Source: Actinomycetota bacterium
GTDB lineage: Bacteria; Actinomycetota; Acidimicrobiia; Spongiisociales; UBA11373
Assembly (NCBI GenBank): GCA_043810615.1
Contig: JBDROA010000007.1
Location: 1,390 to 65,389 of the forward strand
DNA: 64,000 nt
Direction of reading: 5' to 3'
This document shows, one piece after another, positions 1 to 52,905 of the stretch (positions are counted from its first letter, which is position 1; each line of letters opens with the position of its first letter). A program made the position numbers and the translations under genes. Below the pieces are notes generated by a model. It searched no databases. It was not told where the DNA came from and was given only the letters and a program-made list of their open reading frames with translations.

Positions 1-2140
1 AGCGGGCCCGGCGGTACTCCATGCCGTAGCGCTCCCGGAACCCCTCCACCTGGCCGTGGCCGAACATAGGGAGGCCGGGCAGGGTGCACATCAGGCTGCA
101 CACCCCGAAGTACTTGTCCCCGGTGCCGAACTGGGCGGCGGCGGTCTCCTCGTCGGGGTTGTTCATGAAGTTGACGAAGCGCTTCAGGATCTCCGGGTCG
201 AACTCGAGGACGTTGCGCATCAGTCGGCGGTAGTCGGCGTTGCTCTCCGTCGAGGTCATGTGCATGAAGGCGCTGTTGTAGACCCGGTGCATCCCCAGGG
301 TGCGCACGAAGTAGCCCTCCAGCATCCAGAAGGCCTCGGCCAGGAGCAGAGTGTCGGGGGCCTCGGCGGCCACCCGGTCCACCACTTCCCGCCAGAACTC
401 GTCGGGCATGTGGCGGGCGAATTCCTCGTCGGTCATGCCCTGCGCCGCCCGGGAGGGGATGGCCCCGCCGGTGCCGGGGGCGGGGAACCACAGCCGCTGC
501 ACGTGCCGGCGGGCCAGGGTCCTGGCGGCGTCGAAGCGGATGATGGGGAACTGCCGCGCCACGTGGAGGATGGTGCGGATCACCGCCTCCCGCACCTCGG
601 GGAGCAGGTAGTTCAGTTGGGCGGTGTCGTTCCACGGCATCGAGGTCCCGTCGTTGCCGTGGTAGATGAAGTGCTCCGTCCCGGTGTGGCGGTCGAGGCG
701 GCGGAAAACCACGGCGGCGTCGGTGCCGTCCCAGTAATGGTCCTCGATCTGGATGCCCACCCGGGGGTCGCTTGACAGGTCGGGGCCGGTGAAGGAGTAA
801 CCGGGGTACGGGGGCCGAGGCAGGGAGAGGAACCAATCGGGGTGCTCGACCACCCAGCGCCCGTCGATGCCGACGTGGTTGGGCACCATGTCGCTCGCCA
901 GGCGCAGACCCCGCGCCCAGGCGCGGCGGCGCAGGTCCTCCAGGGCCTCCGGGCCGCCCAGGTCGGCGGCCACCTGGTATTCGAAAAGGGCGTAAGCCGA
1001 GGCCACGGCGTCGGGGTTGCCCCGCAGGTGCTTGAGGCGTCGCGAGGCCTCGCTCCGCTCCCAAACGCCGATCAGCCACAGGCCCGTGAAACCGGCGGCG
1101 GCCAGTGCCTCCAGTTCCTCGTCGGGGATCTGGTCGAGGCGCTGCACCGGGCGGCCGTACCGGCGGGCCAACTGGTCGAGCCACACGTGGGTGCTCTTGG
1201 CGATCAGCACCAGGCGGGGCATCCAGGAGCGATCCTCGCTGAACCGCTCGTACTCCCCCGCCCCCCGCAGCGCGGCGGCGTCGAGCACCGGCGAGGGGCC
1301 GGGCGGCCCGACGGCCCGAAAGGCGCGTTCCTCGGCGAACAGGTCCAGGGTGCGCAGGATCCGCGTCAGCAGCCCGGCGAAGCCGTCCCCCAGCAGCCCG
1401 CCCCAATTCGCCCGGATGTACTCCAGTTGCCCGATCAGCGAAGTGGGGCTCGACCGCATGGGGGCGCGCAGGGTGTCGAACAGCGAAGCCCCTCCCGGGC
1501 CCAACGCCGGCAGCCCGGCGAAGAAGGTCTCCAGGGCGGCGATGGCTTCGGGATACGCGGTGGCCTGCTCCAGGGGAGCGTCGTCGTGCAGGTCGCGGAA
1601 ACGGGTGAAGGCCGGGTTCTCGTTGGCCAGGCGAAGCATGATCAGTTCTTCGAGGGCCAGCGCCGCGTTGGGCAGCCCGCCGGTCCTGCCCGCCAGGTGC
1701 TCGGCGGCGGTGCACTCGGCGCGGAAGACCGCGGTGGACGGAAAGCCGGCGGCGAAGGCGAGCAGCAGGCGCCCGGCCTCGCCGGCGAGGCGCTCCTCCA
1801 GGTGGGCCGCCGCCTCGGCCAGGCCCTTCCCGTCACCAGCGGCGGCCTGCCGGGCGATCAGGTAGCGCAGGACCTCCTGGATGAGAGCGGCGGCGGCCAG
1901 GTCCCCGGCCCACACCGCCTGCTCCGGGAAGCGGGCCGCCTCCCGCACCCGGTTCATGGCCGCCGCCACCTCCTGGGCGGCCTCACCCCCCACGGTGAGC
2001 GGCCCGGTGGCGGCGAAGTAGGCGTCTTCGATCTCGTAACCGGCCCGCGCCTCCGCCGCCACCTGAAAGGCGCGCGCCCCTTCGACGGCGGCGGGGCTCA
2101 GCGCGGCATCATCGGGCCGGGAGTCCTCGGCTCGGGCCAT
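1..2140 (-). CDS. glycoside hydrolase family 13 (alpha-amylase family) protein; the C-terminal part runs off the window start
   Basis: Reverse-strand ATG at 2140 (MARAEDSRPDD...) reads open to position 1. It is absent from the ORF track because there is no in-window stop. GH13 signatures are present: GFTGLWLIGVWE, LASDMVPNHVGIDG (region I), FPIIRFDAAM (region II Asp) and FVNFMNNPDEE (region IV-like). A roughly 300-aa helical N-terminal extension precedes them. Confidence 0.8.
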   Translation of the reverse strand, partial: MARAEDSRPDDAALSPAAVEGARAFQVAAEARAGYEIEDAYFAATGPLTVGGEAAQEVAAAMNRVREAARFPEQAVWAGDLAAAALIQEVLRYLIARQAAAGDGKGLAEAAAHLEERLAGEAGRLLLAFAAGFPSTAVFRAECTAAEHLAGRTGGLPNAALALEELIMLRLANENPAFTRFRDLHDDAPLEQATAYPEAIAALETFFAGLPALGPGGASLFDTLRAPMRSSPTSLIGQLEYIRANWGGLLGDGFAGLLTRILRTLDLFAEERAFRAVGPPGPSPVLDAAALRGAGEYERFSEDRSWMPRLVLIAKSTHVWLDQLARRYGRPVQRLDQIPDEELEALAAAGFTGLWLIGVWERSEASRRLKHLRGNPDAVASAYALFEYQVAADLGGPEALEDLRRRAWARGLRLASDMVPNHVGIDGRWVVEHPDWFLSLPRPPYPGYSFTGPDLSSDPRVGIQIEDHYWDGTDAAVVFRRLDRHTGTEHFIYHGNDGTSMPWNDTAQLNYLLPEVREAVIRTILHVARQFPIIRFDAARTLARRHVQRLWFPAPGTGGAIPSRAAQGMTDEEFARHMPDEFWREVVDRVAAEAPDTLLLAEAFWMLEGYFVRTLGMHRVYNSAFMHMTSTESNADYRRLMRNVLEFDPEILKRFVNFMNNPDEETAAAQFGTGDKYFGVCSLMCTLPGLPMFGHGQVEGFRERYGMEYRRAR

Positions 2141-2190
2141 GGTGGCGTCAGCCTAAACGGGCCGGGCCGGCGAGTCCCCGCAGGCGAACC

Positions 2191-3606
2191 TCAGCCGAGG
2201 CCCGTCCAGAGGCCCATCTGGTACACCAGCGTGGCCAGCACCCAGGCCACGGCCCCCTGCCCCACGGCACCGGCCAGCATCCAGCGGTTCCCTAGTTCGC
2301 TCCGGATGGTGGCCAGCGTGGCGGCACAAGGGGTGTAGAGGAGGACGAAGACCATGAAGGCCAGGGCGGCGAGGGCGCCGTGGCCCCCGCTGCTCGCCTC
2401 GAAGAGGTGGCGCACCGAGTCGAGCAGGGCGGTCCACCCGGCCCCCGTCTCCCCGTTCCCGATGGGGATGCCGACGATCCCGGGCACCGCCTCCAGGGAG
2501 TGCCGGCCGGCTGCCAGAAAGCCCCAGCCGATGTCGCCCAGGTCGGAGAGGAATCCGCCTCCGGCCGCATCATCCGCCGTTCCCTCGTCCACCCCGGTCA
2601 CCTGGGCCAGGGTGCTGACGATGACTTCTTTGGCCACCAGGCCGCCGGCCAGAGCCCCGGCCTGCTCCCAGGTGCCGGCGCCCAGAGGCTGCAGCAGGGG
2701 AGCCGCCAGCCGCCCCGCCCCGGCGAACGCCGAGTCCTCCACCTCGACGGACGCAAAACCCGCCCCGCCCCGCACCGGGATGGCGAGCAGCAGCCAGACG
2801 ACCATGCTGGCGAACAGGATCACCGTCCCGGCGGTCTTGACGAACGAGACGGTCCGGGCCGCCGCCAGCGTCCCCACCCGCCGCAGCCGGGGGCGGCGCA
2901 GGGGGGGCGGTTCCAGGGTGAAGCGGGGACGGGCCGGGGAGCGCAGCAGGGTGCGCGACAGCACCGCACCCACCACCACCGCCACCACGATGCCGCCCAG
3001 GTACAAGGCGAACACCACCGTCCCCTGGTGGCTGCCGAAGAACACCGCCGCCATCAGGACATACACCGGCAGCCGGGCGCCGCAGGACATGAAGGGCACC
3101 AGCAGGCCGGTCAGGATGCGGTCGCGCCGCGACTCCAGCGAGCGGGTGGCCAGCACTGCCGGCACCGTGCAGCCGAACCCCATCACCATGGGGAGGAAGG
3201 CCGCCCCGGGGAGACCCACCACACGCATGACCCCGGTGGTGAACATCCCGGAGCGCATCATGTAGCCCGAGTCCTCCAGCAAGGCGAGAGCCGAGTACAA
3301 GACGAGCAGCACGGGCACGAACGCCAGGACCCCCCCCACCCCGGCCAGGATGCCGTCCACCACCAGGCTCTCCACCCACCCGCCGCCGACGCCCACCAGG
3401 CCCAGGAGGGAAACGCACCACCGCGCCACCGGGCCGCTCACCACCTCGCTCACCCACCCCACGTAGGGGGTGGCCACATCGGTGACCAGGCGGAACATGA
3501 CCCACACCACCGCCAGGAACAGCGGCAGGCCGAGGATGCGGTGGGTGAGCAGGCGCCCCAGACGGCCCGTCCTCTCGCTGTGAGTCCGCGCCCCGATGAC
3601 CTTCAT
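2191..3606 (-). CDS. FeoB-like integral membrane protein (Gate/nucleoside-recognition type C-terminal domain), without the N-terminal GTPase domain
   Basis: Translation from internal ATG 3606 (MKVIGARTHSERTGRLGRLLTHRILGLPLFLAVVWVMF...) gives a polytopic membrane protein with FeoB C-terminal-like repeats. The ATG overlaps the TGA of the upstream regulator (ATGA). The ORF-track N-terminal extension to 3831 is Gly/Arg/Pro-rich junk and overlaps the regulator gene. Confidence 0.7.
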   Translation of the reverse strand: MKVIGARTHSERTGRLGRLLTHRILGLPLFLAVVWVMFRLVTDVATPYVGWVSEVVSGPVARWCVSLLGLVGVGGGWVESLVVDGILAGVGGVLAFVPVLLVLYSALALLEDSGYMMRSGMFTTGVMRVVGLPGAAFLPMVMGFGCTVPAVLATRSLESRRDRILTGLLVPFMSCGARLPVYVLMAAVFFGSHQGTVVFALYLGGIVVAVVVGAVLSRTLLRSPARPRFTLEPPPLRRPRLRRVGTLAAARTVSFVKTAGTVILFASMVVWLLLAIPVRGGAGFASVEVEDSAFAGAGRLAAPLLQPLGAGTWEQAGALAGGLVAKEVIVSTLAQVTGVDEGTADDAAGGGFLSDLGDIGWGFLAAGRHSLEAVPGIVGIPIGNGETGAGWTALLDSVRHLFEASSGGHGALAALAFMVFVLLYTPCAATLATIRSELGNRWMLAGAVGQGAVAWVLATLVYQMGLWTGLG

Positions 3607-4088
3607 GGACGCGCCCGGCCCCGGGAGGCCGCGGCGTGCGACGAGGGCGGGATGGACTGCCCCAGCGGACCCACCGCCGGGTCGCCCAGGAATTGCCCGA
3701 GGCGGTCGGCGGCCTCGGGCGGGGTGACGTGCTCCAATCCGCAGGCGAGGGCGTCCGCTTCCTCCGGGGCGAAGCCCAGGTGCCGCACCAAGAAGGCGGC
3801 CCACAGGCGACGGCCCCGCAGCACCCGCCACGCCGCCTGCCGCCCGGCCGCCGTCAGGGAGACACCGTGGTAGGGGTGGTACTCCACCAGACCCCGCTCC
3901 CCCAGGCGGCGCACCATCTGGTTGGCCGACACCGGCGAGATCGCCAGCGCCTGGGCCAGGTCGGCCAGGGGCAGAGGCGAGGGACGGCCCTCCTCCTCGG
4001 CCACCGCCACGGTCATGAGGTACATCTCCTCGCTGGGGGTGGTGCTCGCCTCGGCGCTCGCGCTCCCCGACCCGGAATCTTTAGGCAT
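3603..4088 (-). CDS. DtxR/MntR-family metal-dependent transcriptional repressor
   Basis: 161 aa. The DtxR-type winged-HTH region reads ...LADLAQALAISPVSANQMVRRLGERGLVEYHPYHGVSLTAAGRQAAWRVLRGRRLWAAFLVRHLGF... It sits 5' of, and is translationally coupled to, the FeoB-like gene. Confidence 0.85.
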   Translation of the reverse strand: MPKDSGSGSASAEASTTPSEEMYLMTVAVAEEEGRPSPLPLADLAQALAISPVSANQMVRRLGERGLVEYHPYHGVSLTAAGRQAAWRVLRGRRLWAAFLVRHLGFAPEEADALACGLEHVTPPEAADRLGQFLGDPAVGPLGQSIPPSSHAAASRGRARP

Positions 4089-4097
4089 CCCTAAAGA
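4078..4097. promoter_or_regulatory. 20-bp palindrome TCTTTAGG-CATC-CCTAAAGA overlapping the DtxR-family start codon; putative iron/manganese box operator
   Basis: Perfect 8-bp inverted arms read directly at 4078-4085 and 4090-4097. The spacer contains the CAT (ATG on the minus strand) of the regulator. TTAGG/CCTAA half-sites resemble DtxR/IdeR boxes. A second cctttaggg copy lies about 25 bp downstream (around 4118-4126). Confidence 0.5.
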
Positions 4098-4309
4098 TTA
4101 TCGGGGCGCCGCGCCTGCCTTTAGGGCCGAACGTCCCGGGTTGGGCGGTCGGCGCCCGGGCGACCCTCATGTGGCGCCCATGGGCGAGCCACCGGAGGCA
4201 GGATGGTCGACCTCAGCGGCGTCGGCATCACCAACGTCGCCAACGTGTACCGCAACGGTGACCGCGGCCGGGCCGCGCCCCGACTGAGAGGGCGCAACCG
4301 GGATCCGGT

Positions 4310-41851: not shown

Positions 41852-41936
41852 CCCGGCCGATCGGCCGAGCCGACGGCCGGCAAGGCCGGGGCCCCGCCGC
41901 TATCTTGGCCGGCAAGTGACGCCTCGAGGAGTCCTC

Positions 41937-42779
41937 GTGAAACACCCCAGCCGCGCCCTCATCGCCGGGCTCATGGCCAGTGTCTTGCTGGCCGCCGCCT
42001 GCGGTGACGACGGCGGCACCGGCACCACGGGGCCGGAGACGACCGCCACCGCTGCGACCACACCTTCGCCCACCACCACCAGCCAGGCCACCACCACCAC
42101 CACCCAGGCCACCACCACGACCCAGGCCACCACCACCACCGACCTGCACCCGGTCTGGGGGATCAGCTGGGCATCGGTCTGGCCGGCGGAGGGCTCTACC
42201 GCCACCTACCGCCTCGACCTGTGGAACGAGGAACCGGTCGATCTCCCCACCATCATCGAGTACGGCGTGGAGTGGGACGGGGGCACCTGGGATCGGATCC
42301 TCTTCGGCAGCACCGAGCCCGGCGAGTACGGGCTGGCCTTCTACTTCGACCGCTCCGATCCCTGGGTGATCCGGGTGTGGGGCCTTCGGGCCACCGGGCC
42401 GGGCATGGGCCCGCAGGGGGCTCTCGACGAGTACCTGGGGGGGTTCCCGGCCGTGGACCTGGCCGGGTTGCCCGACGTCGCTCCGACGCTCGACGTCGAC
42501 GCCTTCGTCGACAGCGGGGAGGGGAACCTGTACGGGCCGAGCCCGGCGGTGTACGCCCTTGAGGTGGTGGGCCTCGAGGAGGTCGCGGTGCCCGCCGGCA
42601 CCTTCGAGGTCAGCCTGCACATCCGCTTCGGCCTCGGCGGCGAGTTCTTCGGGGTCCAGGAGGGGCAGGAGATCGCCTCCTTCTCCGATCTCTGGGTCGA
42701 TCCCACCCAACTGATCCTGCGCTGGGACCCGGCCCCCGGCTTCGGGACGGCACTGGAGCTCGTGACCCCCTGGGAGTAA
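41937..42779 (+). CDS. Thr-rich lipoprotein, hypothetical
   Basis: GTG 41937 with GAGGAG upstream. Lipobox LLAAAC, TTTT linker, then a roughly 180-aa domain (...LHPVWGISWASVWPAEGSTATYRLD...). Confidence 0.7.
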   Translation: MKHPSRALIAGLMASVLLAAACGDDGGTGTTGPETTATAATTPSPTTTSQATTTTTQATTTTQATTTTDLHPVWGISWASVWPAEGSTATYRLDLWNEEPVDLPTIIEYGVEWDGGTWDRILFGSTEPGEYGLAFYFDRSDPWVIRVWGLRATGPGMGPQGALDEYLGGFPAVDLAGLPDVAPTLDVDAFVDSGEGNLYGPSPAVYALEVVGLEEVAVPAGTFEVSLHIRFGLGGEFFGVQEGQEIASFSDLWVDPTQLILRWDPAPGFGTALELVTPWE

Positions 42780-42799: not shown

Positions 42800-43712
42800 A
42801 TGCGGCGGCGGCCGTCCCTGGCCATGGTCCTGGGTCTCCCCGCGGTCGGCTGCGGCGTTGCGGCTTCCCCACCTCCACCACTACGGCGCCCACCACCACG
42901 ACGGTCCCGACGACGACCGCTCCGCCCGAACCTCGACCACCCTCCCGGCCGACCTCCATCCCCCCTGGGGCGTCGGGTGGGCGGCCATCTGGCCGGCGGA
43001 GGGAACCACCGCCACCTCTGAGGTCGGGGCCACCGACGACGACACCACCGAGGTCACGGCCCGCTTCGAGCCCGGCGTGGACCAGGAGGGGACGGGCCGG
43101 GATCGCATCGCGGTGGGCGTCGTCGAGGATGGGAAGCACGGGGCCGCCCTCTGCCTCCAGCGGACCGAGGCCCGGGTCCCGCGGCTCTGGGGCATGAAGG
43201 CCACCTCCGTCCAGGACACGTCCTGGACTACTTCGGGGAGCCCCCCGTCCTCGACCTGAGGGATCTGCCCGAAGAGCCCCCCACTATCGCTGGTGGCCTT
43301 CTGGTCCACGTGCCCGGGTCGTGCCTGGGCGATCCTCTCCCCGTCACCTACCGGCTCGAGTGGGTCGGCATCGAGACGGTGGAAGTGGCGGCGGGGACAT
43401 CCACCGACGCCCTCCACATGCAGATCGTGATGACCGGGGAGTCCTTCGAGTGGATGCGGGAAGGGGACGAGCCCGTCGTCTCGGACATGCGGCTCCAAGG
43501 CCGTCTTCCGGATCGAGTGGGTCGGGGTCGAAGACATCGAGGTCGCCCCGGGTGAGACGGAGCGGCTGGAGGTGTGCCACCTCCGCATTGGCCTCGGCGG
43601 GGACTTCTGCCCCCTGGGGCCGGGGGGCGAGATCACCTTCTTCTCCGACCTCTGGCTGCACCCCGGGCAACTGATGGTCGGTGGGAGCCCGGTCCGGCGG
43701 GAGGGCCATTAA
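42800..43712 (+). pseudogene. multiply frameshifted paralog of the 41937..42779 lipoprotein
   Basis: The signal plus lipobox (MRRRPSLAMVLGLPAVGCG) is in one frame. The Thr-rich linker (TSTTTAPTTTTVPTTT) is in a second. ADLHPPWGVGWAAIWPAEGTTATSEV... is in a third. ...LDYFGEPPVLDLRDLPEE...VTYRLEWVGIETVEV... is back in the first. VFRIEWVGVEDIEVAPGETERLEVCHLRIGLGGDF...DLWLHPGQL-stop (43712) is in another. Each piece aligns to the intact upstream paralog. Confidence 0.55.
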
Positions 43713-43907
43713 ACTGCCGATGCCCCGGGGCATGTACGACCGGCGAAGCAGGTGCCGGCGGGCGCTCCGTCCGCCGGCACCCTCAGCCACGGCCCGGGCC
43801 CTAGCGCCGCACCGGCTCCGACTCCCGCGTGGGCACCGGGACCGGCACGGCGCCGGGAGTCGTCGGCTCCTCGACGGGCGCCTGAATGGGCTCCGGTTCG
43901 ACGATGA

Positions 43908-44708
43908 TCACCCGCTTCTGCTCTCCGATGTCCATACTTCCCCAAACCTCCTCGCCTCATCCGTAAGGTACTCCACTGCGCACACCGGCAGGCCGGGACG
44001 GCCGGCGCGCACCCCGCCGGCCCTCTGGGCTTCCTCCCACCCGAGCCCCGGAGCGAACAGCCGGGCAATCCATTTCGGGTCGGATCGGCACACCAAGGCA
44101 CCGTCCCGCATCAGGGCCACCGCCGGCACCTCGGCCCGCTGCGCCCGGTAGCCGTGCTCGTGCTCGATCACCTTGCCGCTGAGGGCTACCAGGCCGTAGA
44201 TGATGCCGGGCCACGCTCCCGGCCGGGCCCCCCAGAGCGCCCCGGCGTCCTTGAAGGCATAGATGCCGCAGCGACAACACGGGGCGTCGTGCGGCGCCCC
44301 CGGCCCGCGGGGGCAGCGGGCCTCCAGTCGCGGCTCTTCCCAGACCTGCACCACGCCGCGCACGCCCAGCGAGGTGAGCCGCCACATGCGGAACCCCAGA
44401 ATGGGCGCCGGCGACCAGAACGCCCCCGCCGACCGCCCCCCGGCGGAGCGCGCCGGGTCCGGGGCCGGCGGCTCCACCGTCGTCTGCGCCCGCACCTGCT
44501 CCAGTTCCAGGATCTGCCGGCGAAGCGCCTCGGCCCCCTTCTGGCTCAGCACACGCGAGAGGGCCCTCCACCCCCGCTCGACCGCCGACGGCAGGGGCTC
44601 GCCCCATGTCACGCCGGGCAACGGCCCCTCGAGCCCGGAGGGCTCACCCCCTCCCGGGCCACTGTGGAACCACCCACCCGGAGGCCGCGGACCAGCCCCC
44701 GGCATCAT
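43908..44708 (-). CDS. uncharacterised protein with a coiled-coil N-terminus and a conserved Cys/His-rich C-terminal domain (gene C of the operon)
   Basis: ATG-ATG at 44708/44705 with GGGGAGG 4 nt upstream. It overlaps the TGA of the upstream gene (ATGA). The C-terminal domain reads FWSPAPILGFRMW...EARC...HDAPCCRCGIYAFK...LSGKVIEHEHGYRAQRA. A clear paralog lies at 51847..52905. Confidence 0.65.
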   Translation of the reverse strand: MMPGAGPRPPGGWFHSGPGGGEPSGLEGPLPGVTWGEPLPSAVERGWRALSRVLSQKGAEALRRQILELEQVRAQTTVEPPAPDPARSAGGRSAGAFWSPAPILGFRMWRLTSLGVRGVVQVWEEPRLEARCPRGPGAPHDAPCCRCGIYAFKDAGALWGARPGAWPGIIYGLVALSGKVIEHEHGYRAQRAEVPAVALMRDGALVCRSDPKWIARLFAPGLGWEEAQRAGGVRAGRPGLPVCAVEYLTDEARRFGEVWTSESRSG

Positions 44709-45700
44709 CGGGCCTCCCCGAACCACGACCGCCGCCCGCCCGCCTGCTGCCCTTCTGAGGGCATCCCTGCCCCGGCCGCCTCGGGGGCCCACAGCGCCGC
44801 CAGGTGCACCAGGGAGGAACCGACGACCAGGGCCGACACCACAGCGCCGGGGGCGGTGAGGAACACCACCTCGCCCAGGCCAACGGCGGCATGGGTGCTG
44901 GCCACCCCTCCCGATAGCGCCGCCACCCGGGCCACCCCCTCAGCGGCGAGGCCACCGCCCGGCCCGCCGAGCCCCACCCGGGCGTCGGCGGCATAGGAAC
45001 CCACCAGGCCCCGCCATAGGAACGCCAGCGTGTCGGGGCGGTCGAACACGTCGAGCGCCAGCGGCCGCGCCCCCACCAGGGCAAGCACGCCGCGTTGGCC
45101 GGCGGCCGGCCGCAGCGGCACGGTGATCTCGTCGATGGCCCCGGCCCGCCGGCGGTGCACCTCGGAGTACAAAGCCGTCGAGGAGTCCACCTCGTGCAGG
45201 CTGAGGTGGCGATCGACCGCGCCCCAGACCTCCCCCTGGTGGGAGCGGTACCCGACACCCCGGCGGGCCTCGTGCTGCACCCCGATGTTCTTGGCTGCCC
45301 TGACCCGGGGGGAGGCGTGGAGGTCCTCGCGCGCCATGGGCCGGGCAGCCCCCCAGCGGCCGGCCTCGACGCACGAGACCGGGATGGTCAGCGTGGCCTG
45401 GGCCGGCACCAGGACCGTGGTGTTCAGCGTGCGGGTCTGCCTGAGCCCGCCTAGCACCTCCCCTTCCAGGAGCAGCACCGGTCGGCCGGCGTGGTTGACG
45501 ACCTGCAGTTCGGGCACCGAGCCACCCCCCACTTCCTCGACCAGCACGACGCCTTCCGCCACCGCCCCGGCAAACAGCCGGTACGGAACGGCCTCACCGT
45601 CGTGGAAGACCGGCACCATGGTGAGCGGGCCCGACTGCTGCGGCTCGCCGAAGCGCAGGCCGCTCCCGAGCATCGTGGTTACGGTGTCGCCTGCCGTCAT
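44705..45700 (-). CDS. conserved hypothetical protein (gene B; resembles the database family ARPP-1/DUF6569, tentative)
   Basis: 331 aa. ...MVPVFHDGEAVPYRLFAGAVAEGVVLVEEVGGGSVPELQVVNHAGRPVLLLEGEVLGGLRQTRTLNTTVLVPAQATLTIPVSCVEAGRW... Its start overlaps the stop of gene A (ATGA at 45697-45700). Confidence 0.7.
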   Translation of the reverse strand: MTAGDTVTTMLGSGLRFGEPQQSGPLTMVPVFHDGEAVPYRLFAGAVAEGVVLVEEVGGGSVPELQVVNHAGRPVLLLEGEVLGGLRQTRTLNTTVLVPAQATLTIPVSCVEAGRWGAARPMAREDLHASPRVRAAKNIGVQHEARRGVGYRSHQGEVWGAVDRHLSLHEVDSSTALYSEVHRRRAGAIDEITVPLRPAAGQRGVLALVGARPLALDVFDRPDTLAFLWRGLVGSYAADARVGLGGPGGGLAAEGVARVAALSGGVASTHAAVGLGEVVFLTAPGAVVSALVVGSSLVHLAALWAPEAAGAGMPSEGQQAGGRRSWFGEAR

Positions 45701-46659
45701 TGGCCCTCCTTGGCACCACTGTCGCGCTCGCCTGTGACAGATCCGGCCGGCGCCGGCGGCGTACCGGTTGCCTGCCGCTCACGCCTCCGCCGTTCCGACT
45801 CCTCCACCGCCCGGCGCTTCTTCTCGCTCACCACGTTGGCGAACAGGCGGGCCGATGAAGACGCCGCCTCCACCTCCCCCAGGGTGAGATCGGCGGCCTG
45901 GGCAGAGGTCACCCGGTCCCAGGCGACACCCTTCTCGGCGGCATAGGCAGCGGCCGGCTGGCGGTGGCGGCGGGTACGGGTCTCGGCCCTCTGCAGGTAG
46001 TAGTGGGAGATCATGTGGAAGACCTCGCCGTTGCCGGCACGGAAGGTGAGGGCTACCGGCGCCTCACCCCAGCGCTCCTGCAGTTCCCGGCTCGAGATGA
46101 GCACCTTCACCCGGCCGGAGTCGAGCACCGTGATGGGGTACGAAGAGCCCTCGAGCCACCAGATCGGGTCGTCCGCCCCCTCCATGACGCCCCTGAGGAA
46201 CGGGTTGTCGTGTGCGGCCGCTTCGATTCGCACCACGGCGTCGCCAGTGGGCCGCTGGTTGAAGGCCACCACGCCGGGGAAGGCCGGTTCGACCACGTGG
46301 CGCAGCGCCCAGTCGGTGGTGAACAGGCTGCCGCCGGCCTCCACGAAGCGTCGCACCGCGTCCACGGCGGCGGCACCCACCTGCCCCGGGCAGTTGACCA
46401 CCAGCAGTTGCTCGGGCCGCAGTTCGAGGCCGGCCAGGTGATAGGGGTCCACCGCCAGGTGGGGCAGGTCCAGGGCCTCAAGGACCCACTCGACGTGGTC
46501 GTACTGCCCGCGCACCACCACGATATCCGACCCCTTCACCTGCTCGAGGATCTCGTGGATCCCCGGCGCTTCGCGAGCGATGGCATCGCGCGTGTGACGG
46601 CCTCCCACCTGGTAGGCCCTGCGGCGGCGATCCTCACGGCTGCTGTCGGTTCCGGTCAA
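45697..46659 (-). CDS. conserved hypothetical protein (gene A; possible class-I-amidotransferase/ThuA-like fold, tentative)
   Basis: TTG 46659 with GAGGAG 8 nt upstream. (M)TGTDSSREDRRRRAYQVGG...GSDIVVVRGQYDHVEWV...LLVVNCPGQVGAAAVDAVRRFVEAGGSLFTTDWALRH... The ORF-track start at 46812 falls in an AT-rich non-coding region. Confidence 0.6.
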   Translation of the reverse strand: MTGTDSSREDRRRRAYQVGGRHTRDAIAREAPGIHEILEQVKGSDIVVVRGQYDHVEWVLEALDLPHLAVDPYHLAGLELRPEQLLVVNCPGQVGAAAVDAVRRFVEAGGSLFTTDWALRHVVEPAFPGVVAFNQRPTGDAVVRIEAAAHDNPFLRGVMEGADDPIWWLEGSSYPITVLDSGRVKVLISSRELQERWGEAPVALTFRAGNGEVFHMISHYYLQRAETRTRRHRQPAAAYAAEKGVAWDRVTSAQAADLTLGEVEAASSSARLFANVVSEKKRRAVEESERRRRERQATGTPPAPAGSVTGERDSGAKEGQ

Positions 46660-46679
46660 GGCGGTTTCTCCTCGGCTCG

Positions 46680-46804
46680 ATAACACCACTGATGGTGCTA
46701 GAATAACACTGTTAGTGTAATCCGTCAACAATAGGCCTCCGATCCTTGGTGTCCTATGCCCTGAGTAGTAGGTTGGCTCCGAGAGGCGAAGAAAGGGCCC
46801 CGCC
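46680..46804. promoter_or_regulatory. AT-rich divergent promoter region between gene A (minus) and the XRE regulator (plus)
   Basis: ...ataacaccactgatggtgctagaataacactgttagtgtaatccgtcaacaataggcctcc... The region is locally far below the roughly 70% GC of its surroundings. Confidence 0.5.
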
Positions 46805-47350
46805 ATGGACATCTCTCACGAGCGCCCCGAGTTCTACGAGGCCCTGGGGCGCACCATCCAGGTGCTGCGGACCGACCAGAGCCTCGATCGCAAGGACCTC
46901 GCCGACCGTTGCGGTATCTCCTACTCGTACCTGGCAGCCATCGAGAACGGGAAGAAGCCCCCCTCTTCCAAGGTGCTGTTCGCCATCGCCGGCGCCCTGG
47001 GGCTGCTCAGCCACGAACTGCTCGCCTCGGTCGAAACCCGTTTCCGGCGGCAGCACCATCCTGCGGCAGCCGCCGCGCCCCGCTTCGCCGCCCCCTCGGC
47101 GCGCCAGGCCTGGTTCCACGCTGCCCCGGCGCCCACGGCCCGCGGGGCTGCGGCTCGGCCCGCCTCTCCCAACCGCGGCCGGCCCGAGGACTTCGCCCCG
47201 GGCCCTCGTGCCACCGGGCAGGCCTCCTCCCCGGTCCCCCACTCTGCCGCCGGGTTCCTCATGGAGCTCGAGCGCCTCGACCTCCAGCTCAGCGACGAGG
47301 ACCGGGACCTGGTGCTCGGCCTGGCCCGCCGCCTGGCGGGGGGCGAGTAG
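46805..47350 (+). CDS. XRE-family helix-turn-helix transcriptional regulator
   Basis: HTH_XRE region: ...LRTDQSLDRKDLADRCGISYSYLAAIENGKKPPSSKVLFAIAGALGL... The C-terminal half is low-complexity Ala/Pro-rich. Confidence 0.8.
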   Translation: MDISHERPEFYEALGRTIQVLRTDQSLDRKDLADRCGISYSYLAAIENGKKPPSSKVLFAIAGALGLLSHELLASVETRFRRQHHPAAAAAPRFAAPSARQAWFHAAPAPTARGAAARPASPNRGRPEDFAPGPRATGQASSPVPHSAAGFLMELERLDLQLSDEDRDLVLGLARRLAGGE

Positions 47351-51846: not shown

Positions 51847-52905
51847 CTAGCCGGCCGGGATGTGGAAGTCGCGCGCCAGCGTCAAGTAGGCGATGACCGC
51901 CTCGGCCATCTGCAGCGGATCGCCCACCTCCTCAACAACTGCCGGGTCGGTGGAGAGCAAGCCGTCGATGGTCGCCTCGGGAGCGACGAAGAGGCTCCGC
52001 AGGCGGGCGCTTCCCTCGATGCGGACAATCTGGCCGCGCCCGACCACCGCCGCGGCCAGCACTCGGGCCTTCTGGGATCGGTAGCCGCGCTCGTGCTCCA
52101 CCACCTTGCCCGACAGGGACGCCAGGCCCAGCACGCACCGGTTCGATCCTGCGGGCAGGCCGAAGGCGGCCAGCAGCTGCTCCGGTTCCTTGAAGCAGTA
52201 GAGGCCGCACGGCGGGGGGCCGCAGCGTCCGTCGGTATGAGGCACCTCGGTGGCGCCGCTCCCGGTGCGCGCCGACAGGCAGCGGGCCTCGTACTCGGGG
52301 CGGTCCCACGGCTTCCAGGCGCCGAAAAGGCGCCCCCGCAGTTCCCACGCGCGGAAGCCCAGCACCACCCCGGGCGACCAGAACTCCTGGAGCGGCGCCG
52401 GCTTGGACTTCGGCCGCCGGGCTCGCTTCGGCTTGGTCGCCGGCGCGGCCGGGCGCGGAGAAGGCGCCGCGGCCGGAACGGGCATCGCCCGAAGTTGCAT
52501 GGGCGTAGCAGGAGGAACGGCGGTGGCGGCCGCCTTCTTCTGCACCGGGGCCCGCGTGGCCGGGGCGGCGGCAGCGGCTCCGACCCGCTTGCGGGACGGC
52601 GCCGGGACCGGCATGGCGGGGATGGCCGGGGCCGGGGGCACCGGCGGAGCAGACTGGGCCCGGAGTGCCACCCGCTCCACGATGCCGGTGAGGGCCTGCT
52701 CGAACTCCCGGCGGCCGCGCCGGGCCTTCTCCGCGTTGTCGGTCCGGATGGCGTCTTCCAACGCCAGGCGCGCCAGACGCCGGCGGACCCCGCGCCCGGC
52801 CGACTCCGCGGCGCCCGGGTGATCACCCCCGCCGTCCATGGAGCGCAGAGACCGCTGCAGCCGGGCCAGGCGGTCCCACTCGGGCTGGGCGACGGCTCCA
52901 TCCAC
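51847..52905 (-). CDS. paralog of gene C (43908..44708): coiled-coil, Lys/Pro/Ala-rich linker, Cys/His-rich C-terminal domain
   Basis: Proposed GTG 52905. The ORF-track start at 53127 reads through an AT-richer probable leader. The C-terminal FWSPGVVLGFRAWEL...EARC...HTDGRCGPPPCGLYCFK...LSGKVVEHERGYRSQKA aligns block for block with 43908..44708. Confidence 0.6.
   Translation of the reverse strand: MDGAVAQPEWDRLARLQRSLRSMDGGGDHPGAAESAGRGVRRRLARLALEDAIRTDNAEKARRGRREFEQALTGIVERVALRAQSAPPVPPAPAIPAMPVPAPSRKRVGAAAAAPATRAPVQKKAAATAVPPATPMQLRAMPVPAAAPSPRPAAPATKPKRARRPKSKPAPLQEFWSPGVVLGFRAWELRGRLFGAWKPWDRPEYEARCLSARTGSGATEVPHTDGRCGPPPCGLYCFKEPEQLLAAFGLPAGSNRCVLGLASLSGKVVEHERGYRSQKARVLAAAVVGRGQIVRIEGSARLRSLFVAPEATIDGLLSTDPAVVEEVGDPLQMAEAVIAYLTLARDFHIPAG

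Follow-up and report, generated by a model that had tools for sequence, protein, structure and literature searches.

Gene C, a minus-strand gene on a 64,000-nucleotide stretch of contig JBDROA010000007.1 from an Actinomycetota bacterium of the class Acidimicrobiia (assembly GCA_043810615.1; the whole stretch is called the window below), belongs to a large uncatalogued protein family with a conserved all-beta domain. Across its stop codon runs a small open reading frame (ORF) which, judged from its conservation in related loci, appears to be a real gene that is translationally coupled to gene C. We tentatively read the two products as a two-protein module. An initial annotation, made from the DNA letters alone, had noticed in gene C an unrecognised Cys/His-rich domain with conserved sequence blocks, had suggested that this domain binds zinc and had pointed to a second copy in the window. 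The features of gene C, of the small ORF and of the paralog are the following (positions are those of the window).

43908..44708, minus strand: gene C coding sequence, 266 amino acids (aa) plus stop (ORF list, ATGA start/stop overlap, orthologs 58-78% identical)
44484..44579, minus strand: N-terminal helical, coiled-coil-like segment of gene C, ERGWRALSRVLSQKGAEALRRQILELEQVRAQ, predicted from family members
44043..44432, minus strand: conserved all-beta domain of about 130 residues (envelope of the hidden Markov model (HMM); AlphaFold2 model)
44268..44315, minus strand: Cys3-His knuckle C132-x7-H140-x4-C145-x-C147, that is C41, H49, C54 and C56 of the domain (conservation; modelled loop)
44145..44165, minus strand: EHEHGYR motif, E182-R188 of gene C, joining the end of strand 78-91 to the start of strand 95-110
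43801..43935, minus strand: small overlapping ORF, 44 aa, MDIGEQKRVIIVEPEPIQAPVEEPTTPGAVPVPVPTRESEPVRR, its ATG lying 25 nt before the end of the last sense codon of gene C
51847..52905, minus strand: paralog of gene C with the domain at about 51976..52389 and a long N-terminus rich in Ala and Pro, lacking the overlapping small ORF (BLASTP, HMM)

The family of the gene C domain

The conservation of the domain within the family exceeds chance by far. A word-indexed search gave 24 relatives of gene C, ranging from 78% down to 38% identity, all of them annotated as "hypothetical" and none with a Pfam domain. With a profile search 569 relatives of the domain were found, and HMMER, run exhaustively over 1.84 billion cluster representatives, yielded 9,066 matches at E<=1e-3, 1,262 at E<=1e-10 and 141 at E<=1e-30. 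Metagenome-assembled genomes (MAGs) of Acidimicrobiia are in the majority among the cluster representatives of the domain. The remote bacterial members stem from Acidobacteriota, Bacillota, Gaiellales, other Actinomycetota and one Patescibacteria genome; they share the motif G[WY]RxW ... C-x(4-8)-H-x(4-7)-C-x-CG[ILV][YH]A ... LWGxV[VI]EHExGYRAxFAYP, and the protein ends soon after it. Several assemblies have more than one copy, with three loci in JAFGCH01 and two each in CAZJRF01, DASWKM01 and VGBK01.

Typically a family member consists of a helical, coiled-coil-like N-terminus of about 80 residues, the all-beta domain of about 130 residues and a short C-terminal helix. In gene C an N-terminal low-complexity and helical part is followed by the beta domain, the C-terminal helix and a tail which overlaps the small ORF. 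When 150 family members were scanned with Pfam at E<=10, the only matches were weak coiled-coil ones in the N-terminal parts (ATG16 in 12, ZapB in 8, DUF7310 in 7, plus others); R, A, L and E abound in these parts, whose median length is 80 aa. Two proteins are the sole unusual architectures in the top 150 representatives, namely P0117 (549 aa) with two domain copies and predicted membrane segments between them, and P0101 (539 aa) with an unmatched N-terminal region of 360 residues.

The second copy in the window proved to be a genuine paralog. A BLASTP comparison of gene C with 51847..52905 gave 42% identity over 121 residues (E=1e-19), and all four blocks listed by the initial annotation (FWSP..LGFR.W, (L)EARC, PH...C.CG.Y.FK and LSGKV.EHE.GYR.Q.A) were found in both copies. 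The family profile detected exactly two domain copies in the six frames of the window, gene C and this paralog. The start originally proposed for the paralog, a GTG at 52905, agrees with the start of the syntenic homolog in locus L001, with which the paralog shares 51% identity.

The domain is indeed unrecognised, as had been claimed. Scans of gene C and of the paralog against Pfam, NCBIfam, PHROGs and PADLOC gave no match, and no clear hit to a named family with an assigned function was obtained. Pfam and PHROG scans of the remote bacterial members, of the viral members and of the protein gp216 of the Streptomyces phage BRock were likewise negative, the family profile did not match any sequence in the PDB at E<=10, and Foldseek did not find any PDB structure for the domain model at E<=0.001. 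The Hcp tube proteins which headed the Foldseek PDB entries were discarded (template modelling (TM) score 0.14-0.18). By sequence reasoning alone, motifs of the GIY-YIG, HUH, HIT, JAMM, zincin, cupin and deaminase-like type do not fit in spacing, order or secondary structure. Text searches of the literature on the domain motifs and on DUF7666, a domain taken up below, did not bring up any paper.

For the structural description the domain is numbered in a 132-residue construct, residue 1 being residue 92 of the 266-aa gene C protein. The initial annotation had proposed to model the C-terminal domain and to map its Cys and His residues onto the model. AlphaFold2, run with a 19-sequence alignment, gave a confident all-beta model (mean predicted local distance difference test score, pLDDT, 90.1; predicted TM score 0.84) with eight strands and two short helices. 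Its long hairpin is made of strands 78-91 and 95-110 with EHEHGYR at the turn. This type of motif is the most widely conserved block of the superfamily, being found in Acidimicrobiia, remote bacterial and viral members, and is also the pattern on which the locus scans were keyed.

Across 257 aligned domains the most conserved positions are R16 (96%), W18 (98%), W32 (99%), G57 (100%), Y59 (99%), E91 (99%), H92 (95%), Y96 (97%) and R97 (100%), together with G87 (99-100%) and V89 and G95 (97-99%). Conserved in all branches, the viral ones that lack the cysteines included, are R16, W18, W32, an aromatic residue at 59, K62 and above all E91-H92-x-x-G-Y96-R97. When only sequences covering both domain ends were counted (334 bacterial and 7 viral), R16, W18, E91, Y96 and R97 were each kept in 332-341 of the 341. 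The universal core signature can be written as G[FWY]RxW ... W ... G[IV][YHW]AxK ... V[VI]EHExGYRA.

The Cys3-His knuckle and the viral relatives

On the model all four Cys and His residues of the knuckle map to a single confidently predicted loop (residues 39-57), in which C41, H49, C54 and C56 have a pLDDT of 91-92 and which is devoid of regular secondary structure. They are nearly invariant in the 257 domains (C41 100%, H49 91%, C54 99%, C56 100%). Whereas the three cysteines are present in 323 of the 334 bacterial sequences, five of the seven full-length viral relatives have none of them and the other two have all three. The four ligands are thus conserved together and lost together, as is expected in general of a structural Cys3-His site. 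From this all-or-none presence we infer that the knuckle is probably a structural metal site which is inserted in a broader domain, and the metal would most likely be zinc rather than an iron-sulfur (Fe-S) cluster. The earlier suggestion of a zinc-binding domain therefore holds in part: the ligands are near-invariant and kept or lost as a unit, which makes a metal site plausible, but zinc and Fe-S are indistinguishable by sequence. The label of a Cys/His-rich domain is misleading, since the knuckle is an optional insert that is missing in several viral relatives. As the knuckle is all-or-none and the core is kept without it, the working surface is more likely the cluster of Arg, Lys, Glu, His, Tyr and Trp residues.

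Two known folds were considered for the knuckle and the hairpin turn and rejected. In the SWIM zinc finger the ligands follow the order C-x-C-x(n)-C-x-H, which differs from the C...H...C-x-C of gene C, and Pfam did not report a match. For the HNH or His-Me finger neither Pfam nor NCBIfam gave a match; the EHE turn links two long strands and is not followed by a helix in minimal members. Nucleases were absent from the Foldseek PDB list for the domain model.

Gp216 of phage BRock is a true homolog, as judged from Foldseek against BFVD (E=2.2e-6, TM 0.58) and from tblastn (27% identity, E=5e-3). It has the motifs GFKHW, C-x6-H-x6-C-x-CGIYA and G.V...GKIV...GFRA; the knuckle is kept and MGS replaces EHE, so that EHE is not absolute. 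In addition, 15 viral contigs of IMG/VR encode proteins of 170-470 aa with an LWGxVVEHExGYRA core at the C-terminus. Most of the IMG/VR relatives are free of Cys and His in the loop, for example IIAWRGW...VWPPKEPVTGKVGSGEHDAGVYAFKD...LWGDVVEHELGYRAENA. The viral relatives differ from gene C in their N-terminal parts, which comprise zinc ribbons or membrane segments; many are without the knuckle, and the MDIG motif of the small ORF was not found in any viral locus. All of them are unannotated and fall into no PHROG or Pfam family. BRock is the sole cultured phage with a relative, and one unannotated record of an uncultured phage also has one. On 72,556 plasmids we did not find any relative.

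A search of predicted viral structures with the gene C model led to DUF7666 (PF24703), a domain of uncharacterised role in proteins of phages and giant viruses (Foldseek probability 0.99, TM about 0.46-0.47, root-mean-square deviation (rmsd) 3.8 A over about 95 columns). The two domains are similar in the order of their elements, from a G-[YF]-[KR]-x-[FW] strand through a Cys-containing loop and a G-[FI]-[HY] strand to a short helix and a long hairpin, but DUF7666 has neither the EHExGYR motif nor the C-H-C-x-C pattern of the gene C domain. At the sequence level Pfam did not match DUF7666 to gene C or the paralog at E<=1 or to any of 150 family members at E<=10. A rebuilt DUF7666 consensus served as positive control and was assigned by Pfam to PF24703 with 131 bits (gathering score 27 bits). 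Hhalign returned 0.44% (E=0.14) with the 19-sequence query and 0.09% with the 257-sequence query, against a DUF7666 alignment of only 8 phage sequences. The order of elements is thus common to both families and the fold perhaps as well, but by sequence the gene C domain does not belong to DUF7666. One DUF7666 protein, gp83 of Bacteroides phage BF1-TP2 (locus L093), owes its name "c-type lectin precursor" to nothing more than automated alignment of structures, and such names for this fold should be treated with caution.

The overlapping small ORF and the operon

The product of the small ORF follows the pattern MDIGxxxRVIxVEP with an acidic Pro-rich tail. An ORF beginning with M-[DE]-[ILM]-G lies near the stop codon of 49 of the 89 family genes, at offsets of -28, -25, -19, -7, +2 and +10, and its carriers include branches that are only about 40% identical to gene C. 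Each of 59 loci has a single occurrence of the motif [MV][DE][ILMV]G...R[VI]I.[VI][EDA], and the only one in the whole window lies at 43935. The codons for M1, D2, I3, G4, R8, V9, I10, V12 and E13 vary at the third position but never at the first two. Upstream of the ATG nearly every locus has a purine-rich stretch that resembles a Shine-Dalgarno sequence. On several contigs a 46-aa ORF spanning the stop codon of a gene C homolog had been predicted by gene callers. The products range from 26 to 92 aa in length (median 43) and have a median isoelectric point (pI) of 4.3; their tails contain 22% Pro, 15% Glu and 14% Ala and are without a hydrophobic stretch. A Pfam scan of the small ORF product gave no match.

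The initial annotation had missed that the conserved C-terminal tail of gene C is the start of this overlapping small gene. The C-terminal W-T of gene C corresponds to ATG-GAC of the small ORF in another frame, and a synonymous ATA/ATC change in the small ORF toggles the end of gene C between WT-stop and WTSESRSG-stop. Selection in the overlap thus follows the frame of the small ORF, and the WTSESRSG tail of gene C is a by-product of the overlap. A second type of paralog, represented by 51847..52905 in the window and by loci L001, L023, L044, L050, L054 and L055, has another C-terminus and is without the small ORF.

At the other end of gene C the start had been placed at 44708 and we retain it. 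Its ATG (44708-44706) overlaps the stop codon TGA (44707-44705) of ARPP-1, the gene upstream, a GGGGAGG Shine-Dalgarno-like run lies at 44719-44713, 5-11 nt 5' of the ATG, and the orthologs start at the equivalent site with a W-F-H motif in common; for these three reasons 44708 is taken as the right start. The open frame extends on the minus strand over 44792..43908, and its mechanical start at 44792 is 28 codons too early. The NCBI call of 214 aa (43908..44549) starts 52 codons too late, the correct length being 266 aa. The gene C protein is 100% identical to the database entry "MAG: hypothetical protein ABIJ48_00675". The window has a G+C content of about 72%, and Rfam and tRNA scans of its whole length did not detect an RNA gene.

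Upstream of gene C we find the following features and, in the related loci, the following gene orders.

44705..45700, minus strand: ARPP-1 gene, 331 aa (PF20208, E=1.1e-67, profile positions 2-296 of 297)
45697..46659, minus strand: gene A, about 320 aa, its predicted fold GATase1-like with long helices on either side, and an invariant Cys in NCPG
46677..46728, between gene A and the XRE regulator: divergent promoter-like sites (two consensus matches against 0.0 expected; consensus match alone)
46805..47350, plus strand: XRE-family helix-turn-helix regulator (PF01381, E=4e-12; same neighbour in L001 and L010)
Gene A, gene C: L001, L007 and L012
Gene A, ARPP-1, gene C: the window and L010
ARPP-1, gene C: L013 (the contig starts inside ARPP-1)
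Gene C alone: L008

ARPP-1 is joined by ATGA overlaps at both ends, to the stop of gene A and to the start of gene C. Such overlaps are kept with and without ARPP-1 where the junction was read (the window and L007). The layouts suggest that ARPP-1 behaves like a cassette, gained or lost between two genes that are coupled. In locus L010 (ENA ERZ25039461 contig_116390, 2140..4289) the region of gene A, ARPP-1 and gene C appears frameshifted; adjacent genes are partly merged in the calls and only 123 aa are left of gene C, probably owing to an assembly error.

By Foldseek the AlphaFold2 model of gene A (pLDDT 89.7) matched class I glutamine-amidotransferase-like domains in the PDB, namely the PabA/TrpG-type structure 8hx8 (E=2.6e-6), MetA (2vdj), STM3548 (2gk3) and the GATase1-like protein 3rht. 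Pfam did not recognise gene A. Its homologs (n=1,237) form a strongly conserved Actinomycetota family; the best 120 of the 1,237 are 60-94% identical, and all but two of these 120 are without a Pfam match. Two homologs are fused to a GGCT/AIG2-like domain (PF06094). From the homolog lengths of 320-321 aa and the promoter-like site at 46728-46700 the true start of gene A should be near 46659. The mechanical start at 46812 would overlap the divergent XRE gene, which starts at 46805.

At 58-78% identity the gene C locus stably keeps its synteny from genome to genome, with fumarase on one side and PorA/ABM/HTH genes on the other. Outside the closest ortholog group neither gene A nor ARPP-1 was found within 8 kb of family members. 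An all-against-all clustering of the ORFs of 87 loci did not reveal any neighbour common to more than 13 loci, and the shared neighbours are generic (ABC ATPase, cyclase/TPR, oxidoreductases, histidine kinase). At loci L002 and L006 family genes lie beside PIN/MazE, ParE/Phd, PemK and integrase genes. Two tandem plus-strand genes run convergent to the operon of gene C, 41916..42779, with a lipoprotein-type N-terminus and a Thr-rich linker, and about 42858..43640; counterparts of these genes, without a Pfam match, occupy the same place in L001, L007 and L008.

ARPP has been described as a predicted sugar- or ADP-ribose-acting protein of ADP-ribosylglycohydrolase (ARG)-centred systems, which also pairs with HIRAN, WYL or deacetylase genes and which has variable partners, small neighbourhoods and gain or loss between close genomes (Iyer et al. 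2022, PMC9503650). As in these systems the gene C operon has a bona fide ARPP-1 which is variably gained and lost. In difference to them the ARG, rhodanese-phosphatase, Macro, NADAR, HIRAN, WYL and deacetylase genes are not present at the gene C operon. No ARG or phosphatase Pfam match was obtained among the scanned operon genes, the rest being the GATase1-like gene A, gene C and the small ORF. The linkage to ARPP-1 is confined to the closest orthologs within the gene C family, and the pairing is not in the list of PMC9503650.

Possible roles of the gene pair

The anatomy, that is the family, the model, the behaviour of the knuckle, the linkage of the small gene and the operon, is secure. As to function, we favour with reserve the reading that the gene C protein and the small ORF product are a two-protein module. 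In the gene C branch the beta-domain protein would be made together with an acidic Pro-rich protein of 26-92 residues from the gene overlapping its stop. The cluster of Arg, Lys, Glu, His and Tyr with three Trp or Tyr residues would form the working surface, a ligand-binding or catalytic pocket. The Cys3-His knuckle, in the loop before the GIYA strand, would hold one structural metal ion, probably zinc, and stiffen the loop, and the invariant N-terminal 14 residues of the small protein, MDIGxxxRVIxVEP, may dock on the beta domain. In this genome the operon consists of four overlapping genes in the order gene A, ARPP-1, gene C and small ORF, with the pair in the distal position and the divergent XRE regulator upstream. 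Two points weigh against the module. The large protein is not basic, with a median pI of 6.4 for its last 220 residues versus 4.3 for the small one, and an obvious charge complementarity is not seen. Moreover, the small ORF is missing from the second paralog type and from the remote and viral relatives, so that the domain can work without it.

The main rival is a toxin-antitoxin-like or conflict module, in which the beta domain would be an enzyme effector acting through R16, K62, E91, H92, Y96 and R97, the small acidic protein its neutraliser, and the Cys-less phage copies offensive or decoy versions. We consider it unlikely, and the further rivals are less likely still. Two coupled genes that overlap and differ greatly in size, the presence of several paralogs in one genome (three loci in JAFGCH01), varying chromosomal contexts with the L002 and L006 copies beside toxin-antitoxin and integrase genes, and an adjoining XRE regulator all resemble a type II toxin-antitoxin system of toxin-first order. 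Relatives in phage BRock and on the 15 IMG/VR contigs would also fit, as would the insertion of ARPP-1, a component of predicted anti-viral ADP-ribose systems, in some ortholog operons. However, the small partner has only 14 conserved residues and no recognisable DNA-binding fold, the large partner belongs to no known toxin family and carries a long coiled coil, which is atypical for a toxin, and PADLOC did not report a match. The absence of relatives from the plasmids and the stable synteny of gene C at 58-78% identity, which resembles vertical inheritance, also speak against it, and the paralog type lacking the small ORF would be an unguarded toxin.

It is improbable that the domain is, as the initial annotation taken literally would have it, a self-contained module of the zinc-finger type, whose metal site would serve, for example, the recognition of nucleic acid or protein in the manner of HNH-associated or SWIM-type fingers. 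Four near-invariant ligands in the spacing C-x(4-8)-H-x(4-7)-C-x-C of the bacterial members would agree with this, and the coiled coil would yield a dimeric binder. But viral relatives keep the domain without Cys or His in the loop, and the knuckle therefore cannot be the conserved functional element; it makes up only about 16 of the 130 conserved residues, and none of the HNH, SWIM or zinc-ribbon models of Pfam matches.

Still less do we expect a redox or Fe-S sensor, in which the Cys3-His site would bind an iron-sulfur cluster and the proteins would be paralogous small regulators with a lifestyle like that of the WhiB-like proteins, which occur in Actinobacteria and their phages. Cys3-His ligation is used by some [2Fe-2S] proteins, and a multi-copy family in an actinobacterial class with phage-encoded relatives would suit such regulators, but the spacing is unlike the CDGSH and WhiB motifs, no Fe-S family of Pfam matches, members without the cysteines exist and the neighbourhoods do not give a redox hint.

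Very improbable, finally, is a divergent ADP-ribosyltransferase (ART)-like enzyme working with the ARPP-1 encoded directly upstream, which is predicted to act on ADP-ribose-derived sugars. R16, the aromatic residue 59 and E91-x-E93, in the motif order R ... Y ... ExE, would mimic the triad R / S-T-S / E-x-E, and the Foldseek PDB entries include cholera toxin A1 (2a5g_B) with a TM of 0.48 and, lower, PARP1 and Tne2. But these matches are non-significant (E=1.7, probability 0.30 and rmsd 9.9 A for cholera toxin A1), an S-T-S equivalent is missing, BRock gp216 has MGS for EHE, the minimal domain of about 100 almost all-beta residues is too small for the ART fold, ARPP-1 is confined to the closest orthologs and lacking at L001, L007, L008 and L012, and the operon is without an ADP-ribosylglycohydrolase or phosphatase gene, gene A having a GATase1-like fold.

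We rate the gene C domain family as new because none of the comparisons placed it in a named family, with DUF7666 at most perhaps sharing its fold, and because its nearest relatives are uncharacterised. New means here an uncatalogued family and not demonstrated new biology. More than 9,000 cluster representatives of the domain stand outside every curated library queried; with a name for the domain, thousands of "hypothetical proteins" of Acidimicrobiia and related uncultured groups would gain an annotation. From the micro-gene, conserved as it is across the stop of gene C, a protein partner for gene C is predicted, and it shows that the C-terminal "motif" of gene C has been misread by gene callers and alignments.

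Going beyond the two-protein module, a metal-braced beta-domain enzyme or sensor controlled by a docking micro-protein with a disordered acidic tail might be a new two-component system of Acidimicrobiia and other uncultured lineages, with which knuckle-less phage versions interfere; this more specific proposal we regard as doubtful. Should a conflict or regulatory module be the true reading, the Cys-less phage relatives and the turnover of the ARPP-1 cassette would inform how such systems assemble. Should the two-component proposal hold, the pair would stand for conflict or regulatory modules of a new class, with a fold that is itself new.

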